Virus record (IMG/VR): IMGVR_UViG_3300045988_045270
Strand: one strand, 5' to 3'
Source: a virus
DNA length: 36,846 bases
Shown here piece by piece: positions 1,941 to 36,846 of the stretch. The notes beneath the pieces were generated by a model, which was not told the origin of the DNA, did no database searches, and worked only from the letters and a program-made list of their open reading frames with translations. A program made the position numbers and the translations under genes. Every line of letters starts with the position of its first letter. The first letter of the stretch is position 1.

Positions 1941-2320
1941 TGGCACAAGGCTATTATTCATGTAGCAGGTGTGGGAAGATACATCCGAAAGGATATGTAT
2001 GCCATGTAGAGAAGAAGCACTACAAGTACAGTTACAAAGAGTCAAGGCTGAGAAGCAAGAGCGTATGGACAGAGAAGAGCAAACAGATTAGAGAAGATGC
2101 AAACTATCTATGTGAAGTGTGCAAAGACAAAGGCATATATAACTATCGTAATGTTGAAGTACATCACATAGAGAAGTTGAAGGATAAGCCAGAGTTATGG
2201 TTGGAAGATGATAACCTTATATGCTTATGTAAAGACTGTCACAGGTTAGCTGATGCAGGAATGATTGACAAAGAGTATTTGAAGAAGTTAGCTAGGCAGA
2301 GAATAGACAGGCTGAAATAA
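1940..2320 (+). CDS. HNH endonuclease (packaging-associated)
   Basis: CxxC...EVHHIEKL...LCKDCH motif. The gene lies between the lysis and packaging genes, as in cos-type phages. Confidence 0.85.
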   Translation: MAQGYYSCSRCGKIHPKGYVCHVEKKHYKYSYKESRLRSKSVWTEKSKQIREDANYLCEVCKDKGIYNYRNVEVHHIEKLKDKPELWLEDDNLICLCKDCHRLADAGMIDKEYLKKLARQRIDRLK

Positions 2321-2543
2321 TCCCCCCCATGGTAACGGGCATTTTCTGGTGAGACAGTGAGATGAAACGCCCAAAGGAATGAACACAAAATTAAAAAAAT
2401 CTTATGGTTTTTTGGAAAAACGGCAAATATCACGCTATAATGTGAATATAGCCGTTTTTATGTTTCAAAAAGAAGCAAAAAAGCAAAAAAATGTTCCACG
2501 TGGAACATGAGCGGGCTATATGAATGAAAGGAAGAAAACAAAA
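2321..2543. promoter_or_regulatory. Non-coding region with a C7 run (2322-2328) and a perfect 18-bp palindrome ATGTTCCACGTGGAACAT (2491-2508); candidate cos or terminase-recognition region
   Basis: The palindrome and the unusual C-run in an AT-rich genome are read directly. The position between HNH and the packaging genes is typical for cos. Confidence 0.35.
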
Positions 2544-3098
2544 ATGGAAAACAAAAAAATGAACATTGTTTACAAGAAAGTTAAGGACTTAATTCCGTAT
2601 GAGAACAATCCGAGACATAATGATGAAGCTGTTGACTATGTAGCAAAGAGCATTGAATAGTTTGGCTTCAAAGTTCCGTGTGTTGTGAGTGGTGACGGCG
2701 TATTGATCACGGGTCATACAAGACTTAAAGCATTTAAGAAGTTAGGTATCGAAGAAGTTCCGTGCATTGTGGCTGATGATCTTACTGAAGATCAGATTAA
2801 GGCATTCAGGATTGCAGATAACAAAGTATCCGAATACAGCACATGGGACAACACAAAACTTGCTGAAGAACTGAGCGACATCATGATGGATATGACACAG
2901 TTCGGTGATGATCTTTTCAAGGATGATGATACGATGAACGTTGAGCTTCCCGAAGAAGAAAATCCTTACAGCCAGAAGAAACACATCCCACAGTATGAAC
3001 CGACAGGTGACTTTGTCGATATTATGGAACTTATTGATGATGAAAAGACAAACGAGTTGATAAAAGAAATCAAAGAGTCAAACGTCACTGAAGATTAA
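2544..3098 (+). pseudogene. ParB-like nuclease-domain gene interrupted by an in-frame TAG (2658-2660); the reading frame stays open for a further 75 codons beyond its TAA (3096-3098), to 3323
   Basis: Translation MENKKMNIVYKKVKDLIPYENNPRHNDEAVDYVAKSIE*FGFKVPCVVSGDGVLITGHTRLKAFKKLGIEEVPCIVADDL carries the ParB N-terminal domain motifs (NPR, SI..G...P, GHTRL). The TAG falls inside the conserved block. Confidence 0.6.
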
Positions 3099-3312
3099 AA
3101 GAATTTTCTCATCAAAGGGGCTTACAGACATCTTAAATTCAATTATTCAAAGATTGCTGACTATTATTCCAATGCATCTGAAGAAATGCAGATTCTCATG
3201 GAGAAATCAGCGCTTGTCATTATTGACATTGATGATGCAATTGCAAACGGATATGTGAAACTTACAAAGGCTGTCGAGGACTTGATTGCTGAAGGTGGGG
3301 GCGGTGAAGACA

Positions 3313-4173
3313 ATGATGAATAAAAACTTTGCTGTATTTATTCTTTCACATGGACGTGCGAACAATATCAAGACAGTTAATATGTTGAAACGTTTTCATT
3401 ATACAGGTGATTGGTATGTTGTTATAGACAATGAGGATGATCAAGAAGAACTGTACAGAAATGAGTTTGGAAATCACATCATTCAATTTGATAAGCGAGA
3501 CTATGTAAGCAAAATCGACCTTGGCGACATGGACACAGACAGAATGGTTGGCGTGTTTGCGAGAAACTTTATTCAAGATGAAGCAGAACGTCTTGGCTAT
3601 GAATGCCACCTACAGCTTGATGATGATTTTTCTGAAATCGCAATAAGATATGCAGATGATGATAAATTACAAAGCATGATGGTTACTGACCTTGATGCTG
3701 TATTCGATGCGTGCCTTGATTTATTTTTATCAACGCCGTTGACTGCTTTATCATTTGCATTATCAAGTGATTACATTGGCGGAGTTGCTAGTGATAGGTT
3801 CCAAGCAGGAATGTTCAGGAAAACAATGGGATCGTTTTTCTTAAAAGCAAAAGACAAATTTCAATTTGTCATGCGTATGAACGATGATATTACATCATGC
3901 ATTTTGCACGGATCACGAGGAAAGTTGTTCTATACCATTTCGAGCTTGCAGGTGATTACTCCTGCGACTCAGCATAATACTGGTGGAATGACTGACATCT
4001 ATCAAAAGAATGGTACATATCGAAAATCGTTTTACAGTGTCTTGTGTTGTCCTTCATTTGTGAAGGTTTCAGCGATGGGAATTACTGACTTCAGGATTCA
4101 TCACACTATCAGTTGGAATAATGCCGTGCCAAAGCTTCTATCTGAAAGGTGGTGCAAGCATGAAAGACATTGA
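3313..4173 (+). CDS. GT-A fold (GT2-like) nucleotide-sugar glycosyltransferase
   Basis: N-terminal beta-strand FAVFILSHGRA, VVIDNEDD near residue 40, and the DXD motif LQLDDDF near residue 100. Strong RBS AGGTGGGGGCGGTGAAG precedes the ATG at 3313. Confidence 0.5.
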   Translation: MMNKNFAVFILSHGRANNIKTVNMLKRFHYTGDWYVVIDNEDDQEELYRNEFGNHIIQFDKRDYVSKIDLGDMDTDRMVGVFARNFIQDEAERLGYECHLQLDDDFSEIAIRYADDDKLQSMMVTDLDAVFDACLDLFLSTPLTALSFALSSDYIGGVASDRFQAGMFRKTMGSFFLKAKDKFQFVMRMNDDITSCILHGSRGKLFYTISSLQVITPATQHNTGGMTDIYQKNGTYRKSFYSVLCCPSFVKVSAMGITDFRIHHTISWNNAVPKLLSERWCKHERH

Positions 4174-5260
4174 TTATCTTATTATAGGTGCAGGGCTGAG
4201 CGGTTCAGTGATTGCGAGGGAAATGACGGACAAGGGCTATAAATGCGTTATTCTGGAAGATCGCACCGAGGTTGGTGGAAATATAAGGGACAAGGAAATC
4301 AGCGGAATAAACGTGCATCTATACGGCCCTCATATATTTAGAACTAATGACATCGAAATATGGGCTTATGTTAACCGTTTCGCTAGTTTTAACAATTTTA
4401 TCAATGAACCTATTGCAAATTACAAAGGCGAAATATATAACCTTCCGTTTAACATGAACACATTCTCTAAACTGTGGAGAGTTACAACACCAGAAGAAGC
4501 AAAGAGAAAGATTGAGGAGCAGAGAATACCGTGTGAAGATCCGAAAAATCTCGAAGAATATGTTCTAAATCTTGTAGGCACGGATATTTATGATAAATTG
4601 ATAAAAGGATACACAGAAAAGCAGTGGGGCAAGCCATGCAAGGAACTTGATAAAAGTATTATCAGGCGTATTCCGTTGCGATTCACGTACAACAATAATT
4701 ATTTCAATGCAAAGTACCAAGGCATTCCCGTTGATGGTTATTCTAAGGCAGTAGAAAGACTCCTAGAAGGCGTTGAAGTGGTGACAGGGTATAAATGTTC
4801 ATGCTCAAGTAAAGAGTGGCTAGAAAGGGCAAAAAACGTGGTTCTGACAGGTGCTATTGACGAGTGGTACGGTTATTGCTTTGGAACGTTAGAATATCGT
4901 AGCCTGAAATTTGAAACAGAGGAATTGAAGGAAGAAAATCATCAAGGCAATGCTGTCGTGAATTATACCGATGCTAGAGTGCCGTATACCAGAGTTATTG
5001 AACACAAGCATTTCACAGGGGTGAATACATCGACAACCATTATCACGAAGGAATATCCGCAGAAATGGAATATCGGGAAAGAGCGGTACTATCCGATTGA
5101 AGATGAAAAGAACAAAGCACTGTATCAGAAATACAAAGAACTTGCAGACCGTGATGGATTGATCACAGTTGGAAGGCTTGCAGAGTACAAATATTATGAT
5201 ATGGAAGATACAATCAAAAGTGCATTAAAGGCGGTGAGAGAATTATGCGAAAAACAGTAA
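4160..5260 (+). CDS. glf: UDP-galactopyranose mutase (Glf-like flavoenzyme)
   Basis: FAD-binding DYLIIGAGLSGSVIA...GGNIRD motif, and HLYGPHIFRTND...VW.YVN.F..FN.F.N...A.YKGEIYNLPFNMNTF matches the UGM family along its whole length. RBS GAAAGGTGGTG. Confidence 0.85.
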   Translation: MKDIDYLIIGAGLSGSVIAREMTDKGYKCVILEDRTEVGGNIRDKEISGINVHLYGPHIFRTNDIEIWAYVNRFASFNNFINEPIANYKGEIYNLPFNMNTFSKLWRVTTPEEAKRKIEEQRIPCEDPKNLEEYVLNLVGTDIYDKLIKGYTEKQWGKPCKELDKSIIRRIPLRFTYNNNYFNAKYQGIPVDGYSKAVERLLEGVEVVTGYKCSCSSKEWLERAKNVVLTGAIDEWYGYCFGTLEYRSLKFETEELKEENHQGNAVVNYTDARVPYTRVIEHKHFTGVNTSTTIITKEYPQKWNIGKERYYPIEDEKNKALYQKYKELADRDGLITVGRLAEYKYYDMEDTIKSALKAVRELCEKQ

Positions 5261-5619
5261 ATGAACAGGCTGAAGAAATATTACAGAAAGCAGAAACATT
5301 CGGAGTTGATAAGAATTTCTTTTTTATCACGACATTCAGGCGATACATGGTACAGTTGAAAATATTAAACGAGCTTGAATCGTCGATAAAAAATGACGGC
5401 GTGTTGGTTACGAAAGAATATGTAAAAGGAAGAAAAAACGTATATTCACATCCAGCCATTCAGGATTATAACCGAACAACTGACAGTGCAAATAAGACAG
5501 TCAGCACGTTAATGAAGATCATTTCGAGATTTTCCAGTGATGATAATTCTGAAAATGATACTGACCCATTGCTTCAGCTGATAAATGGCGGTGACGATGA
5601 TGGCAGTGACGAGCAGTAA
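5245..5619 (+). CDS. terS: Terminase small subunit (P27 family)
   Basis: About 120 aa with ...KEYVKGRKNVYSHPA... and an acidic C-terminus, immediately upstream of TerL. Typical partner of an HNH endonuclease. Confidence 0.65.
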   Translation: MRKTVNEQAEEILQKAETFGVDKNFFFITTFRRYMVQLKILNELESSIKNDGVLVTKEYVKGRKNVYSHPAIQDYNRTTDSANKTVSTLMKIISRFSSDDNSENDTDPLLQLINGGDDDGSDEQ

Positions 5620-5681
5620 GGCTTATGAATATTGCAAAAACTCTGTCAGAAAGAAAACCACACCGAGATACGTCAAAAAGG

Positions 5682-5689
5682 TGTATAAT
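5682..5689 (+). promoter_or_regulatory. Extended -10 promoter TGtATAAT in front of the GIY-YIG gene
   Basis: TGTATAAT at 5682-5689, about 27 nt upstream of ATG 5717. Read directly. Confidence 0.4.
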
Positions 5690-5716
5690 ATACAGTAGAA
5701 AAGAGGTATCAACAAG

Positions 5717-6328
5717 ATGGGTACATATACTGTATATAAGCATACATCACCAAATGGAAAGGTATATATCGGAATCACAAAGCTAAGTGTTGAAAGACGG
5801 TGGCAAGAAGGAAAAAATTACAAGACAAGCAGTCATTTTAATAATGCCATAAAAAAATACGGATGGGACAACATTAAACATGAAATCCTATTTACAGGGC
5901 TTTCAAGAAGCGAAGCAGAAGCAAAAGAAATAGAACTAATTGCCAAATATGACAGCACGAATCAGCGTAATGGTTACAACATAGAAAAAGGCGGAAATAC
6001 TCCTGAAATGTCAGAAGAAACACGTCAAAAGATGAGCAAGGCACACAAAGGCAGAAAGTACAAAAAGCGTAGAAACCACACAGAAGAAGAAAAGCTAGCA
6101 ATTAGCAAAAAATTAAAAGGAAGGGCATCTCCAATGAAGGGAAAACATTGGAGCATAGAACAACGCAGTGCAGTAGGAACGCCTATAATATGCACAACGA
6201 CAGGTGAAGAATTTTATAGCATTCGTGATGCATCACGTTCTACAGGATGCGACAGAGCAAATATATCTAGAGTATTAAAAGGAGAATACAAACAGACAAG
6301 GGGGCTTAAGTTTGAGTATAAAAAATAG
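5717..6328 (+). CDS. Free-standing GIY-YIG homing endonuclease with NUMOD3-like repeats
   Basis: GIY-YIG motif YTVYKHTSPNGKVYIGIT...R...E, repeated KxxKGRK/SPMKGKHWS DNA-binding modules, and an HTH-like C-terminus. The gene is inserted between terS and terL and its stop is a tandem TAG-TAA. Confidence 0.85.
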   Translation: MGTYTVYKHTSPNGKVYIGITKLSVERRWQEGKNYKTSSHFNNAIKKYGWDNIKHEILFTGLSRSEAEAKEIELIAKYDSTNQRNGYNIEKGGNTPEMSEETRQKMSKAHKGRKYKKRRNHTEEEKLAISKKLKGRASPMKGKHWSIEQRSAVGTPIICTTTGEEFYSIRDASRSTGCDRANISRVLKGEYKQTRGLKFEYKK

Positions 6329-8000
6329 TAAAGCATATATATACTGCAAAGAAAATTATAGAAAACAGACTTGCCCTAAGTACGTCCGAAAGCAGATGCG
6401 AGACTGGATGAAGATTGCAGAAGGAAAAAACGCAAAGTACTTTGTATCTGAAAAGAAGGTTCAGCAGATCGAAAACATTCTGAAACTGCTTATCATGCCA
6501 AAAGGATTGAAAGCAGGACAGTCTATGTATAAGTGCGCAACTGGGTATCAATGGCTAATTTACACAGCCATGCTATGCACTGTATATCGTGACAAACCGA
6601 AAAATCGCAGATATGAGACAGGGCTGTTAGAAATATGCAGAAAGAATTTTAAGACATATACAGTCGGAACAATCTTTATTATCTTGTTTTTGACAGAGCC
6701 AAGGTTTTCAAAATTCTTTTCAGTTGCACCAGATGGAGCATTGTCAAGAGAAATAAAAGAAGCAATATCTGACACAATTAAAAGCAGTCCGCTTATTTAT
6801 GAATATAAAGGAACGAAGCGTTTTAAGTTGTTAAGGGACTACATTAAGTTCAAGCCGAATGAAAATACGTTGATCCCGTTAGCATACAGTAATAACCGTA
6901 TGGACGGACGTATGCCGAATGCATTTATCGCTGATGAAGTTGGAGCATTGCCAAATGGTTATCCTGTTGAAGCTATGCGTTCTGGACAGCTAAATGTTGT
7001 TAACAAACTAGGGTTCGTTATCAGCACAAAATATCCGACAATCGACAATCCTTTCGAGGACGAGGTCGCGTATGCCAAGAAGGTTCTTGATGGCATTGAG
7101 AAAGACGATACTATTTTTGCACTGTTGTATGAACCTGACAAAACATCAGACTGGGAAACAGACAATCTTGTTTTGAAGCAGGCGAATCCTGCATCATTAG
7201 AAATCCCTGAAATCTGGGATGATCTTGTCAAGAAGCGTGCGAGAGCCATTGCCATTGAGAATGAGCGAGAGAACTTTGTAACAAAGCACTGCAATATTAT
7301 CTATCAAGGGCAAGGAACTGAAACGTTTATTGACGTTAAAGATGTTCAAGCGTGCAAGGTTGCAGATATTGATTGGAACGGAAGGGTTGTATATTTAGGC
7401 GTTGACCTTTCAGAATCGAACGATAATACATCTGTTGCCATGGTTTCTGTAGATGATGATGATAACATTCTTGCAGAAAGTTTTGCGTTCATTCCAGCAG
7501 ACAGGATCACAGAGAAAACAATATCAGAGCGTGTGAACTATCAAGAACTATTGAAGAGTGATAAGGTGTTTGCATGTGGTGACAGAGTTATCTCATATGC
7601 GTTTGTCGAGCAGTTCATATTGAGTCTTGAGAGCCGTTATAACGTACAAATTCAGGCGATTGGATATGATAGATGGAATGCATTAAGTACAGCGCAGAAA
7701 CTGGCTAATGAGGGCTATAACACGGTTCAGATAAAGCAGTATTCAAGCGTGCTTCATTCTCCGACAAAGAGAATGAAAGAAGCAATCCTTAAACAGAAAT
7801 TCAAATACACAGAAAACAAGCTTCTTGAAATCAATTATCAGAATGCTAAATGTGCTTATGATACCAACAAAAATATGTATGTCAGCAAGAAAAAGAGCAA
7901 CGGCAAGGTTGATATGGTTGTATCACTTATCAATGCAATTTACCTTCTTGAACAGGATTATTTCTTGAATGAAGGTGACTTCACATTCCAGATGATTTAA
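6312..8000 (+). CDS. terL: Terminase large subunit (Terminase_1 family)
   Basis: N-terminal YFVSEKKVQQIENILKLLIMPKGLKAGQSMYKCATGYQW matches the Terminase_1 signature. Walker B ADEV and a C-terminal RNaseH-like nuclease region (VYLGVDLSESND...) are present. TTG start sits 6 nt after GGGGG. Confidence 0.9.
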   Translation: MSIKNSKAYIYCKENYRKQTCPKYVRKQMRDWMKIAEGKNAKYFVSEKKVQQIENILKLLIMPKGLKAGQSMYKCATGYQWLIYTAMLCTVYRDKPKNRRYETGLLEICRKNFKTYTVGTIFIILFLTEPRFSKFFSVAPDGALSREIKEAISDTIKSSPLIYEYKGTKRFKLLRDYIKFKPNENTLIPLAYSNNRMDGRMPNAFIADEVGALPNGYPVEAMRSGQLNVVNKLGFVISTKYPTIDNPFEDEVAYAKKVLDGIEKDDTIFALLYEPDKTSDWETDNLVLKQANPASLEIPEIWDDLVKKRARAIAIENERENFVTKHCNIIYQGQGTETFIDVKDVQACKVADIDWNGRVVYLGVDLSESNDNTSVAMVSVDDDDNILAESFAFIPADRITEKTISERVNYQELLKSDKVFACGDRVISYAFVEQFILSLESRYNVQIQAIGYDRWNALSTAQKLANEGYNTVQIKQYSSVLHSPTKRMKEAILKQKFKYTENKLLEINYQNAKCAYDTNKNMYVSKKKSNGKVDMVVSLINAIYLLEQDYFLNEGDFTFQMI

Positions 8001-22420: not shown

Positions 22421-24238
22421 ATGGCAACATCAGGAACATTCAAAACATCAGCATATGATGGCGCGTGCCTACAGTTCGACTGGATGTTGAAAAACCAAAA
22501 CATCGTCAACAATCAATCTGTTATCACATGGACATTAAAAGGTGCAGGAATCAAGTCTGGCTATTGGTACATGGCAGGGCCCTTCAAATGCGTTATAAAT
22601 GGGACTACAGTTTATCAGTCAAACACAAGAATTGAGTTATACACTGGGACGGTTGTGGCATCTGGAGAACTTGCAATCGGGCATGATACCAATGGTTCAA
22701 AGAGTTTTTCAGCGTATGCAGAATGTGCAATTTATACAACGGCTGTAAACTGCAAAGGTTCTGGAAGTTGGAGCCTTCCAGACATAGGCAGAGCATCAAA
22801 GCCAAGCCTGAACACATGGCCGAACAATTTGCCAAACTTTAATATCGGCGATACTATTGTGGTGTATATGAACAGAAAATCATCAGTATTTACGCATACA
22901 GTAGTGCTGAAGTTGGGTTCATACAGTTATACTATCGGCACTGGTGTAACGGATAATATTTCGTTGGATACGGACAATATCGCATCAAGTCTGTATGCAC
23001 AAATGCCAAACAGCAATAGCATGACTGGAGAAATCACTGTAACAACGTATAGTGGCAGTGTGATTATAGGTACGTCAAGCTGTACAATCATTGCACACGT
23101 TGTAAATTCTAACCCTGTATTTGATGTGGGTTATTCCGACACAAATTCGACAACAGTTGCAATCACTGGTGACAATCAGTATATTATCAGGAATAACTCG
23201 ATATTGAAAATCAGCATAAGCAATGCGCAGGCATTAAACAGTGCCACGTTGAAAACAATTACTGCCGTAGTAAATGGAAATGCTTATACAGGCAGTTTAA
23301 ACGGCACTACAGGCGTTGTAAACGTTGGCACGGTAAATATATCATCTGATGCAAAAGTGACCGTTAAATTGACGGATTCAAGGGGAAACGAGGGCATCAG
23401 TGAAATCACGGTGCTTGTGTACGACTGGATATTACCAAGTGCAATCATCAAGCTGAACCGAAAGAGCAATTATTATTCAGAAAGCATCTTGAATGTCAAT
23501 GCGAATTATTCATCAATAGGCGGAAAAAATGAGGTAACGATTAAGTACCGCACGAAGAAGGTTGCAAACAGCACATATAGCACTTACACGACAATTCAGG
23601 ATAACACCGATACGAATTTTACAGCTGACAACGAGTATGAATGGAACGTTCAGGTCAATGTTGCAGACAGACTAGGTAATACAACATACAATCTGATTCT
23701 TCCGAGGGGGATTCCGATTGCATATATAGATACTCAAAAAAACAGTTTCGGCGTAAATTGTTTCCCTAAAAACGATGAAAGTTTGGAGATAAATGGCAAA
23801 ACTGTTTTTGATATGGTGTACCCAGTAGGCAGTATTTATATGAGCGTGAACACCACAAGTCCAGCAACTATGTTCGGTGGTTCATGGGTGCAGATAAAGG
23901 ACAAATTTCTGCTAAGTGCAGGAGATATGTATAAAGCTGGAGCAACTGGTGGTGAAGCAACACACACGCTGACAAAAAGCGAAATCCCGAATTATACAAT
24001 TGGTAGTATTCCAGAAGCGGTTCCTGGCAATCACGATAACTGGCGTAATGGCGGGATCACAGGTGACAACTTAGGAAATGCCTCAAGTTCTAAAAAAGGT
24101 GTTGCAAACAACAACGAAGTGCTCATAATAACTTCTGGACCTCAGTGGAGTTATAGAATCAGCACAGACGGTGGAGGTCAACCGCACAACAACATGCCAC
24201 CCTACATAGCCGTCTACATTTGGCAAAGAACGGCGTAA
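22421..24238 (+). CDS. Receptor-binding / tail fibre protein with C-terminal phage tail collar domain
   Basis: C-terminus YPVGSIYMSVNTTSPATMFGGSWVQIKDKFLLSAG...HTLTKSEIPNYT...NMPPYIAVYIWQRTA is paralogous to the 19967 gene C-terminus. Upstream beta-rich Thr/Ser-rich domains. Confidence 0.6.
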   Translation: MATSGTFKTSAYDGACLQFDWMLKNQNIVNNQSVITWTLKGAGIKSGYWYMAGPFKCVINGTTVYQSNTRIELYTGTVVASGELAIGHDTNGSKSFSAYAECAIYTTAVNCKGSGSWSLPDIGRASKPSLNTWPNNLPNFNIGDTIVVYMNRKSSVFTHTVVLKLGSYSYTIGTGVTDNISLDTDNIASSLYAQMPNSNSMTGEITVTTYSGSVIIGTSSCTIIAHVVNSNPVFDVGYSDTNSTTVAITGDNQYIIRNNSILKISISNAQALNSATLKTITAVVNGNAYTGSLNGTTGVVNVGTVNISSDAKVTVKLTDSRGNEGISEITVLVYDWILPSAIIKLNRKSNYYSESILNVNANYSSIGGKNEVTIKYRTKKVANSTYSTYTTIQDNTDTNFTADNEYEWNVQVNVADRLGNTTYNLILPRGIPIAYIDTQKNSFGVNCFPKNDESLEINGKTVFDMVYPVGSIYMSVNTTSPATMFGGSWVQIKDKFLLSAGDMYKAGATGGEATHTLTKSEIPNYTIGSIPEAVPGNHDNWRNGGITGDNLGNASSSKKGVANNNEVLIITSGPQWSYRISTDGGGQPHNNMPPYIAVYIWQRTA

Positions 24239-24524: not shown

Positions 24525-25094
24525 CTATTCCATCAGGTGAAACATGGACAGAATCAAGAACATTTCGCCACAGGGTGCGCTTGTTCTCACGTGTGAGGTT
24601 ATCATATATTGAGCGCCAACCGCACCAGTGATAGGTTGACCTTGAGCAATCTTGTACTCAAATACGGCTTTGATACGTTCAGAGCCTTTTTTTAATTCAT
24701 GTTCTGCAAGATTGACTTTAAGGTTGAACATAAACAATCCGTTCGCAGTGGACGTGTTTATATCGTCCTCACAAATGGAAATCATGGCGACATTGTTCTG
24801 TTGAAGAAGTTCAAGCATTTTATTAGCTTCAAGGACATTACGTGACAGACGGTCAAGGCGTGTGAAAGCTATGGCATCAAGATTTTTCAGGTTAGACAGC
24901 ATGGATTGCAGTTGTGGGCGCTTCATGGTGCTTGCTGAGTAGCCTTCGTCTACATAAATATGTTGAAGGATATGATCATTGTCGTTGCACCATTGCGTTA
25001 TTTCTTCAGTCTGGGCCTGTATTGAGTATCCATATTTTTTCTGTTCATCTGTTGAAACACGAGCATATCCTGCCACTCGCAGTTTTTTTCTCAT
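24525..25094 (-). pseudogene. Large serine recombinase (integrase) reduced to its N-terminal catalytic domain; truncated at TAG
   Basis: MRKKLRVAGYARVSTDEQ...YVDEGYSAST.KRP.LQ...LDRLSRN...ERIKA matches the serine recombinase catalytic domain with the Ser nucleophile. The recombinase and zinc-ribbon domains are absent. RBS GGAGGG precedes ATG 25094. Confidence 0.6.
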
Positions 25095-25269
25095 AAAAAA
25101 TCCCTCCGATTGATTGAAAATAAAAAAAGCAGTCCATACTAGCCATTGAAAGGCGGTGAGCATATGGACGCTGAAAGTTTCTATTCTTTGCTGTTTAATC
25201 TTTATGCTGAACAGGAAGATCTCAAAATTGAGTATGAGTTAGACAACTCTTTTTTTTCGACAGATGGTT

Positions 25270-32706: not shown

Positions 32707-32771
32707 GTTTCAAAAAGAAACAAAATACGGAAAAATGTATTGCAATCGCTTATATATTATGATATTATAAT
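32707..32771. repeat. 65-bp palindrome-plus-promoter cassette, copy 2
   Basis: See 30858-30922. It lies immediately after the stop of the DnaC-like gene. Confidence 0.85.
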
Positions 32772-32811
32772 AAGCGTAAAGAGAAAGGGAAAAAGAAAGG
32801 AAAAAAAGAAC

Positions 32812-33138
32812 ATGACAAACGCACAAATTATATTCAATGAAGCAGTTGAACTTATGAAAAATGGAAAAATCGGAACAACAGGCAATCAGTTTGAAGTTGA
32901 AGATGAAAACGGCAACAAAATGATCCTCGATGAACCAGAAGACATTCATACATTCCAAGCATGGAAAAAGCTCGGTTATTGTGTGAAGAAAGGCGAGAAA
33001 GCTGTTGCACAGTTCTACATCTGGAAATGTGTATCAAAGGAAGTTGAAAATAGCGAAGGAATAACCGAAGAACAGAAAAAAATGTTCATGAAAAAAGCAA
33101 GCTTCTTCAGCGCAAGCCAAGTGCAGGCAATGAATTAA
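32812..33138 (+). CDS. ArdC N-terminal-like (DUF1738-like) ssDNA-binding domain protein; possible anti-restriction function
   Basis: IHTFQAWKKLGYCVKKGEKAVAQFYIW...FFSASQVQ resembles the ArdC N-terminal motif W.TF.QA..LGG.V.KGEKG...F...QV. The call rests on motif recall. Confidence 0.35.
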   Translation: MTNAQIIFNEAVELMKNGKIGTTGNQFEVEDENGNKMILDEPEDIHTFQAWKKLGYCVKKGEKAVAQFYIWKCVSKEVENSEGITEEQKKMFMKKASFFSASQVQAMN

Positions 33139-34644: not shown

Positions 34645-35007
34645 ATGGATTCACAGGAATTAAATAAGGTATTCGATACGCTTGTGGCAAATTGTCCTGT
34701 ACTCGAAAAAGTATGCGAGATGTGGGGTAATCAGCATATGTTAACTATCGCAATGGAAGAAAATGCTGAACTTATACAAGCAATATCAAAAATTAAACGT
34801 AATGGATTGGACCCAATCAACGCTTCACACTTAGATGAAGAGGTTGCAGATGTATTGATATGCATATGTGAACTATATGCGATGGATTGTCTAGATGTAT
34901 ATGAAATTGCTGAAATCATAAAAAGCAAAGTAGGAAGATCTATGAAAAGAACTCAGGATTATATAAAAGATTTAGAAGAGGAGGCTAGATGCGATGGCAG
35001 TTTTTAG
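34645..35007 (+). CDS. MazG-like nucleotide pyrophosphohydrolase
   Basis: EENAELIQAISKIKRNG...HLDEEVADVLICICEL matches the MazG small-NTP-PPase motifs (E..E...EE..D). Confidence 0.65.
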   Translation: MDSQELNKVFDTLVANCPVLEKVCEMWGNQHMLTIAMEENAELIQAISKIKRNGLDPINASHLDEEVADVLICICELYAMDCLDVYEIAEIIKSKVGRSMKRTQDYIKDLEEEARCDGSF

Positions 35008-36677: not shown

Positions 36678-36846
36678 ATGGCAAAACTTGCGAAAATGAA
36701 GTACAAAACTATGGGTGGCGATGTAAAAATCAACACGTATAATGCGACAATATCAAAAAAGATTGTGGCTGAATCCGGGATTGATCCTGATAAAGAAATC
36801 ACAGTTATGGCAGAAACTGGAAAAATCATTATTGAACAAAAAAAAT
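36678..36846 (+). CDS. AbrB/MazE (SpoVT-AbrB swapped-hairpin)-like small DNA-binding protein, first gene of the late/lysis transcription unit; continues into the terminal repeat
   Basis: RBS GAGAGG. VKINTYNATISKKIVAESGIDPDKEITVMAETGKIII fits the AbrB-type beta-hairpin pattern. Confidence 0.45.
   Translation, partial: MAKLAKMKYKTMGGDVKINTYNATISKKIVAESGIDPDKEITVMAETGKIIIEQKK
36763..36846. repeat. Terminal direct repeat, copy of 1-84
   Basis: See the first feature. Confidence 0.9.

Follow-up and report, generated by a model that had tools for sequence, protein, structure and literature searches.

A candidate ParB-TAGT-mutase DNA glycosylation module beside the terminase genes of a lambda-like temperate siphophage

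Why would a lambda-like phage carry, directly in front of the genes that package its DNA, one enzyme predicted to make a furanose sugar donor and another predicted to transfer it? The question is raised by positions 3313-5260 of IMG/VR record IMGVR_UViG_3300045988_045270, a stretch of 36,846 nucleotides (the window), in which two overlapping open reading frames (ORFs) encode a putative glycosyltransferase and a putative UDP-galactopyranose mutase (UGM). The window is a complete, circularly closed phage genome, with positions 1-85 repeated exactly at 36762-36846 and a unique length of 36,761 bp, and by gene content it is a lambda-like temperate siphophage. An earlier note on this DNA had described the pair as a phage moron and had preferred the host cell wall as its target. 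We propose instead, as an evenly balanced judgement, that the pair is the catalytic core of a late-expressed, post-replicative module, composed of a ParB-like gene, a glycosyltransferase of the TAGT family and the mutase, that glycosylates phage DNA. The genes of this cassette, with its downstream neighbour, are the following.

2544-3323, + strand: gene of the ParB-CTPase fold, 260 codons, colinear with the intact 259-residue ParB of relatives
3313-4173, + strand: predicted TAGT-family GT-A glycosyltransferase, 286 residues, intact ORF
4160-5260, + strand: predicted UDP-galactopyranose mutase, 366 residues, intact ORF
5245-5619, + strand: small terminase subunit gene terS, 93% protein identity to terS of phage phiLdb; downstream boundary of the cassette

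In the mechanism that we infer, the FAD-dependent mutase would turn a host UDP-pyranose (UDP-galactose, probably also UDP-N-acetylgalactosamine) into a rare furanose donor, and the TAGT, a presumably metal-dependent enzyme with a DxD motif, would move the furanose onto phage DNA ahead of packaging. The ParB-CTPase-fold partner would load or activate the TAGT on double-stranded DNA, as in the ParB-dependent phage thymine dioxygenases, and the outcome would be phage DNA shielded from host nucleases.

The glycosyltransferase and the mutase

The product of 3313-4173 matched the Pfam family PF20691 (TAGT, TET-associated glycosyltransferase) over residues 6-223 (E 1.6e-36; 126.6 bits, gathering cut-off 27.5) and PHROG 842 (7e-63). 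The GT-A elements pointed out previously are present, as VIDNEDD at residues 37-43 and LQLDDDF at 100-106, and the invariant positions among 16 homologues comprise R15, the last residue of an invariant H13-G14-R15 motif, D39/E41/D42, D103-D104 and N190-D191-D192, with D105 nearly so; the C-terminal region, residues 216-286, is conserved and basic (pI 9.5). The AlphaFold2 (AF2) model (pTM 0.69), of good confidence for residues 1-150, has a GT-A fold and, in Foldseek comparisons with the Protein Data Bank (PDB), matched the GT-A enzymes MPG synthase, GalS1, ColGalT1 and SpsA. The galactofuranosyltransferase GlfT, which had been suggested as the possible nearest fold, was not among the 50 best PDB matches listed. 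The best fold matches in BFVD were TAGT-domain proteins (4e-23), and a T-even beta-glucosyl-HMC (hydroxymethylcytosine) alpha-glucosyltransferase was also found there. A sequence search of the PDB with the protein gave no significant match; we recovered 1466 TAGT homologues among 5.8 billion proteins, many of them on contigs of about 37 kb, with no recorded copy of the exact window protein, and among genome contigs the sole match, at 39%, was in a Bacteroides metagenome-assembled genome. By family and by model, the protein is thus classed as a GT-A member of TAGT, the family that includes the DNA glycosyltransferases for base J and for 5-hydroxymethylcytosine in phages, and not as a transferase of the cell-wall type.

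The ORF at 4160-5260, which is preceded by a Shine-Dalgarno-like GGTGGTG just 5' of its ATG, matched PF03275 (2.5e-74; 249.8 bits, cut-off 26.3) and, over residues 5-362, the NCBIfam equivalog model TIGR00031 (375.6 bits, cut-off 303.75). The FAD-binding GxGxxG motif quoted previously is present as G10-A-G-L-S-G15 (PF13450, 1.8e-15), and YGPHIFR occupies residues 55-61. UGMs have active-site residues that, in Klebsiella pneumoniae numbering, are Y155, W160, R174, Y185, N270, R280, Y314, R343, Y349 and D351. In HMMER alignments with the solved structures 2BI7, 1I8T and 4MO2, the corresponding residues of the window protein (Y151, W156, R170, Y181, N268, R278, Y311, R339, Y345 and D347) were all identical. 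The earlier note had called the UGM assignment strong, with loss of FAD binding or of catalytic residues as its weak point; both are retained, and, judged by its sequence, the product is predicted to be a bona fide UDP-galactopyranose mutase. The earlier idea that the two genes work as one unit, with a mutase for sugar nucleotides and a transferase of the GT-A type, is supported.

The best match of the mutase to a solved structure was 4MO2, the UDP-N-acetylgalactopyranose mutase (UNGM) of Campylobacter jejuni (4e-135), ahead of Escherichia coli Glf (8e-127). Two arginines, Arg59 and Arg168, reportedly mark the C. jejuni enzyme as a bifunctional UDP-Gal/UDP-GalNAc mutase, the monofunctional E. 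coli UGM having His and Lys at these positions. Both are found in the window mutase, as R61 (in YGPHIFR, codon 4340-4342) and R169 (in IIRRIP, codon 4664-4666), whereas 63 of the 86 sampled UGM loci carry His/Lys. From these two residues only, the product may be UDP-N-acetylgalactofuranose (UDP-GalfNAc) besides, or in place of, UDP-galactofuranose (UDP-Galf).

The specificity residues follow the adjacent transferase. TAGTs of the window's clade are of two types, 64% identical overall and differing mainly in residues 105-215. Type I, to which the window protein belongs, always stands next to an Arg59/Arg168 mutase (14 loci), and type II stands next to mutases with His59 or Lys59, a rule that also holds in L016, L095 and L097 (L-numbers are our labels for the loci compared), whose mutases are otherwise 88-91% identical to that of the window; across mutases of 88-92% identity, Arg59 still goes with the TAGT subtype. 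The Arg/Arg mutase also occurs in the triads of L098, L101 and L025. We read this co-variation, which represents few independent events, as a functional coupling of donor specificity, because mere linkage would not keep a single residue in step with the adjacent gene when backbones recombine.

A recurrent triad in front of the terminase genes

The ParB-like gene overlaps the TAGT gene by 11 nt, the TAGT gene overlaps the mutase gene by 14 nt, and the latter overlaps terS by 16 nt. From ParB to terL we found no terminator-like sites except one weak match within terS, and the G+C content of 3300-5260 (0.37-0.40) is the same as in the remaining genome. In addition, the AT skew falls to 0.03-0.05 over 3001-4500 (the end of ParB and the TAGT gene), from about 0.2 in the flanks and with G+C unchanged, and similar dips occur at 15-16 kb and at 24-25.5 kb. 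Further elements of the region are listed here; the cos region was placed by aligning window positions 2300-2560 with the first 110 nt of NC_022762 (phiLdb) and with relatives.

2330-2370, + strand: approximate cos region; the packaged left end of phiLdb aligns at about 2366, and the upstream HNH gene ends at 2320
2412-2441, + strand: sigma-70-like promoter match (TTGGAA-18-TATAAT, 10/12), upstream of the cassette and conserved in relatives
2491-2508, no strand: perfect 18-nt palindrome ATGTTCCACGTGGAACAT, between the promoter-like site and ParB
6312-8000, + strand: large terminase subunit gene terL; the gap between terS and terL holds a homing-endonuclease-like gene (5717-6328)

The alignment of the phiLdb left end at about 2366 makes the cassette the first transcription unit after cos. 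The promoter-like site could alternatively be a terminase-binding element, and the palindrome is found in L015 and L009 and is missing from L018.

To establish how widely the cassette is distributed, we compared gene neighbourhoods and scanned IMG/VR, mapping the hits by tblastn. All members of the window's clade showed the order ParB-TAGT-mutase-terS at this locus, and over 25 independent contigs, drawn from different samples, have an identical gene order within phage backbones, which disposes of the concern that the two genes had been brought together by misassembly. The TAGT and mutase of the window are 99% and 93% identical, respectively, to those of L015.

The interval between HNH and ParB varies among these relatives. 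It is empty in the window and in L009, L011, L013, L015, L018 and L093, so that a deletion peculiar to the window was rejected, and in eleven loci it holds the gene of a second TAGT, of 281 residues. Second TAGTs located 5' of ParB, about 34% identical to the first, were seen in L003 (151-978), L004 (73-918), L008, L010, L012, L014, L016, L019-L022 and L097, which suggests a two-sugar modification in those relatives. In L005-L007 the interval holds instead a 281-residue radical S-adenosylmethionine (SAM) protein (L005 4394-5239), directly 5' of ParB-TAGT-mutase, with a CxxxCxxC motif and related to the PA0069/Rv2578c/spore-photoproduct-lyase (SPL) group, with scores below the cut-offs of those families. 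To our knowledge, the only characterised member of that family acts on thymine in DNA. The protein could be an oxygen-independent, thymine-acting substitute for the O2-dependent dioxygenase 5mYOX in anaerobic gut hosts.

The ParB-TAGT-mutase triad, just 5' of the terminase genes, recurs in dozens of independent contigs and in at least five unrelated phage backbones. Outside the clade it lies next to terminase genes in L098-L100, L101-L103 (with Terminase_6N), L081 and L030, the last with Terminase_3, a second TAGT and two additional GT2 genes; the short contig L025 covers nothing but the triad, and a related prophage lies in an 84-kb Hadza gut contig. ParB-TAGT pairs without the mutase, overlapping by 8-11 nt, are present in phages of Lactobacillus delbrueckii, in L. 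gasseri phage phi jlb1, in E. coli lambdoid phages and in the haloarchaeal virus HHTV-2; the pair lies just 5' of terS in phi jlb1 and the E. coli phages, and about 3 kb 5' of terL in HHTV-2. Nocardia phage NTR1 has an unannotated Orf1 followed by a TAGT gene directly 5' of terL. This distribution shows that the pair belongs to a module that is old and mobile, unlike a one-off moron, and the description as a moron is likewise at odds with the overlap of the four genes, the lack of a terminator before terS and terL, the native composition and the recurrence of the triad.

In E. coli lambdoid phages, as in vB_EcoS-673R7 (L091, 2604-5933), trkG comes first, then ParB-TAGT and then terS. The order resembles that of trkG-ynaK-ydaY in the Rac prophage of K-12, which may hold a remnant of the ParB-TAGT module.

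The acceptor: DNA, protein or cell envelope

DNA, which the earlier note had ranked as a less likely target, is now the best supported one, on account of the TAGT family, the conserved translational coupling to ParB, the SPL-like radical SAM neighbour in relatives and the location of the genes next to the terminase. Phage thymine dioxygenases (5mYOX) are activated on double-stranded DNA by ParB homologues, and the genes most often found next to phage 5mYOX are those for glycosyltransferases, ParBs and terminases (PMC13229309); according to one proposal, ParB also steers modification enzymes to the DNA while it is being packaged (PMC8256090). The slot 5' of terS, far from being normally free of metabolic genes as had been stated, is a known site for DNA-modification genes (PMC13229309, PMC12704722). 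Phage GT-A enzymes that act on 5-hydroxymethylcytosine (5hmC) in DNA have been tied by fold to the trypanosome base-J glucosyltransferase (Pyle 2023, bioRxiv 10.1101/2023.12.21.572611), and phage UGM genes adjoin DNA glycosyltransferases elsewhere, in L. brevis phage ATCCB and in the Pootjesviridae.

Several findings weigh against DNA glycosylation in this phage. The C-terminal third of the AF2 model of the transferase is poor (pLDDT below 50), its PDB fold matches are generic GT-A enzymes that include the teichoic-acid enzyme TarP (rank 16, E 8e-4), and the TAGT domain of human GREB1 O-GlcNAcylates a protein (PMC7968844). The co-variation of mutase and TAGT could be partly due to linkage, the ParB-like gene of the window carries two in-frame stop codons, and, in scans of all sizeable ORFs of the complete genome against Pfam and PHROG, we found no TET/JBP enzyme, ThyA-like hydroxylase or hydroxymethylase, or C5-methyltransferase.

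The GREB1 activity would fit a transferase that places Galf or GalfNAc on a protein, such as a virion protein, the terminase or ParB, late in infection. Such a target would also agree with the co-expression of the cassette with packaging and structural genes, with the peptide-modifying enzymes SunS and collagen galactosyltransferase among the fold matches and with the absence of an enzyme for an acceptor base. We nevertheless consider it unlikely, since the coupling to ParB is translational and conserved from bacterial to archaeal viruses, an SPL-like radical SAM enzyme shares the operon in relatives, and the module moves among phages with unrelated structural genes, contrary to what one specific virion acceptor would require. 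Collagen-like fibres had been put forward as virion acceptors, but no G-X-Y run of six or more repeats occurs in any frame of the window.

The match to TarP, a prophage-encoded GT-A enzyme that acts on wall teichoic acid, bears on the previously preferred view, in which a moron active in lysogenic conversion decorates teichoic acid or cell-wall polysaccharide of the host with Galf and so masks receptors. UGMs usually serve cell-envelope glycans, and no hydroxylase was found. Opposed to it are the late-operon layout, with genes that overlap ParB and terS, have no terminator of their own and are of native composition; a Pfam family that is TAGT, not GT2 or GtrB; the absence of a flippase or membrane partner; and the occurrence of the module in viruses that infect Gram-negative bacteria, Gram-positive bacteria and archaea, hosts without a common envelope acceptor. 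A cell-envelope target is thus contradicted on several sides and, in our opinion, very improbable.

The stop codons of the ParB-like gene raise a different alternative, compatible with any designed function, namely that this copy is a decaying remnant whose TAGT and mutase are no longer used. A GAG (Glu) codon of relatives is replaced by TAG at 2658-2660, and a CAA codon, Gln or Glu in relatives, by TAA at 3096-3098, whereas ParB is intact in 16 of 18 relatives. The earlier note was right in placing a ParB-like gene just upstream of the transferase, but that gene is interrupted. Its translation is 92% identical (tblastn) to the intact ParB of L005, in which, as in other relatives with an intact gene, the ParB N-terminal domain was detected, and it is similarly near to other relatives; synonymous differences in ParB are many more than non-synonymous ones, in keeping with purifying selection on the gene in relatives, and synonymous differences also predominate in TAGT and mutase. 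The ParB of L014 (1097-1876), an independent contig, has a TAG at the neighbouring codon of the same SIEEFGF motif.

Exact 28-30-mers containing the window's stops had zero copies in IMG/VR and JGI metagenome contigs, and the stops are either recent inactivating mutations or sequencing errors. Reassignment of stop codons was rejected, as other genes end in TAA (22), TGA (6) and TAG (3), the remaining long ORFs are intact, no suppressor tRNA is encoded and the relatives have Glu or Gln codons at both sites; recoding is unlikely. The window ParB is probably a pseudogene. Decay of the whole cassette would be in line with the serine recombinase at 24525-25163, which also looks truncated, and with the TAGT gene being split or lost in several L. 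delbrueckii phages. Against it, the TAGT and mutase ORFs are intact, keep all motif residues and are close to those of L015, the architecture without a gene between HNH and ParB is common and otherwise intact, and the ParB stops could be errors, given that the exact 28-mers were found nowhere else. We regard a remnant as possible, if somewhat doubtful.

The main point against DNA is the absence of a hydroxymethylase, which had already been noticed and is confirmed by the Pfam and PHROG scans; the relatives' cassettes likewise lack any enzyme for a hydroxylated base. With no enzyme to make 5hmC, 5-hydroxymethyluracil (5hmU) or 5-hydroxycytosine (5hoC), the usual acceptor base would be absent, and this lack, together with the broken ParB, means that the module may be weakened or inactive in this particular genome. 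We know of no chemically defined case in which the sugar is not on a phage-installed hydroxyl (5hmC, 5hmU or 5hoC). About 65% of the contigs retrieved with profiles for GT-A and GT-B DNA glycosyltransferases lack both 5mYOX and ThyS, and Pyle et al. deem them less likely to be DNA modifiers (bioRxiv 10.1101/2023.12.21.572611).

One way out, which we consider rather unlikely, is that the triad puts GalfNAc or Galf on phage DNA without a hydroxymethyl- or hydroxy-pyrimidine precursor, which would be a new modification chemistry. The sugar would then go directly onto a canonical base, for instance at its exocyclic amine, for which the ParB-fused N6/N4 methyltransferases found in this genomic slot offer an analogy, or onto some other position of the DNA, and a ParB clamp loaded near cos shortly before packaging would guide the enzyme. 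If true, precursor-free glycosylation would also account for the many ParB-TAGT pairs that stand as 'orphans' in small temperate phages, bacterial and archaeal alike.

Genomic setting and comparison with known systems

The left part of the genome contains, in order, a holin, a GH25/CW_7/LysM lysin, the HNH gene (1940-2320), the cos region, the cassette and terS, followed by the homing endonuclease, terL and portal genes and by head and tail genes that extend to 24238. Next to the tail genes, on their 3' side, lie a serine recombinase, cI, cro and the recombination and replication genes. A megablast search of INPHARED with 25 kb of the window gave no match, and the phage therefore has no cultured close relative. 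The homing-endonuclease-like gene at 5717-6328 has NUMOD motifs, and the terL of relatives is itself of 926 residues with Hom_end and LAGLIDADG matches (L005 8291-11071); the packaging genes thus appear to be a hotspot for selfish elements. The serine recombinase (24525-25163, - strand) consists of a resolvase catalytic domain only, in 212 residues, with no continuation in any frame up to the tail gene ending at 24238, and this integrase looks truncated. In the early region, 32740-33138 and 34645-35007 encode a protein with an ArdC N-terminal-like anti-restriction domain and a MazG-like nucleotide pyrophosphohydrolase, respectively, which could serve counter-defence or control of the nucleotide pool.

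DNA glycosyltransferases of the TAGT kind, ParB partners and a phage UGM within a DNA-glycosylation cluster are already published. In the literature that we searched, we found no description of the compact ParB-TAGT-mutase triad and its wide distribution in gut phages, of UNGM-type residues co-varying with the TAGT subtype, or of the complete lack of a precursor-base enzyme. Glycosylated phage DNA defeats restriction enzymes and CRISPR. The cassette offers a compact and very common gut-phage example of glycosyltransferase loci that lack a precursor enzyme; its dedicated donor-making enzyme marks it as a pathway for glycosylation, from which an uncommon furanose adduct, possibly GalfNAc, that should be easy to detect is predicted, and the natural variants (second TAGT, radical SAM protein, Arg or His at the mutase specificity position) provide a comparison set. 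Should the acceptor be DNA, no earlier DNA modification would have involved a furanosyl-HexNAc; the finding would reveal new acceptor chemistry and would bear on gut virome sequencing and phage therapy.

The mutase resembles C. jejuni UNGM (PDB 4MO2) in keeping Arg59 and Arg168 as R61 and R169; the latter is a cellular enzyme for capsule synthesis, and bifunctionality of the phage enzyme is suggested by those two residues only. The closest cultured relatives of the window are the L. delbrueckii Cequinquevirus phages (c5, phiLdb, PMBT4), which lack the mutase; of their TAGT genes, that of phiLdb is split, and others are truncated or lost. Their left end nevertheless has a homologous ParB-TAGT-terS-terL arrangement, at about 72% nucleotide identity to the window and with protein identities of 93% for terS and 79% for ParB.

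A phage UGM within a DNA-glycosylation set is known from Rhizobium phage RL38J1 and the Pootjesviridae, with UDP-Galf as the proposed donor (Lee 2026, PMC13326640). That system puts galactose on 5-hydroxycytosine and, unlike the window, makes its acceptor by means of a ThyA homologue; its glycosyltransferases are of other types, its phages are 155-kb myoviruses, its mutase is only 39% identical to that of the window, and ParB is unmentioned (PMC13326640). In L. brevis phage ATCCB (L089, MK504445), positions 3031-6086 encode a ThyS homologue, a beta-glucosyltransferase and a UGM in a row; we found no published description of this cluster, which looks like pre-replicative DNA glycosylation with a furanose donor.

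The phage 5mYOX/TET-dependent GT-A DNA glycosyltransferases (PMC8256090; bioRxiv 10.1101/2023.12.21.572611) and the base-J glucosyltransferase JGT are, like the window protein, GT-A enzymes with a DDD motif. The TAGT family, of which the window protein is a member, is named for its association with TET/JBP genes, the likeness being at the level of family and fold. The 5mYOX-dependent enzymes use Glc, GlcNAc or heptose from the host pool, whereas the window has a dedicated mutase and hence a predicted furanose donor; its complete genome is without any methyltransferase, 5mYOX or ThyS. These systems are post-replicative in action, as is proposed for the window, and, as there, ParB and terminase genes are frequent neighbours. 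In the ParB-dependent phage thymine dioxygenases (O'Toole 2026, PMC13229309), the partner of ParB is a dioxygenase and not a glycosyltransferase, and the window ParB differs by its two stops; these systems likewise place a small ParB-like gene by a DNA-modifying enzyme near the terminase.

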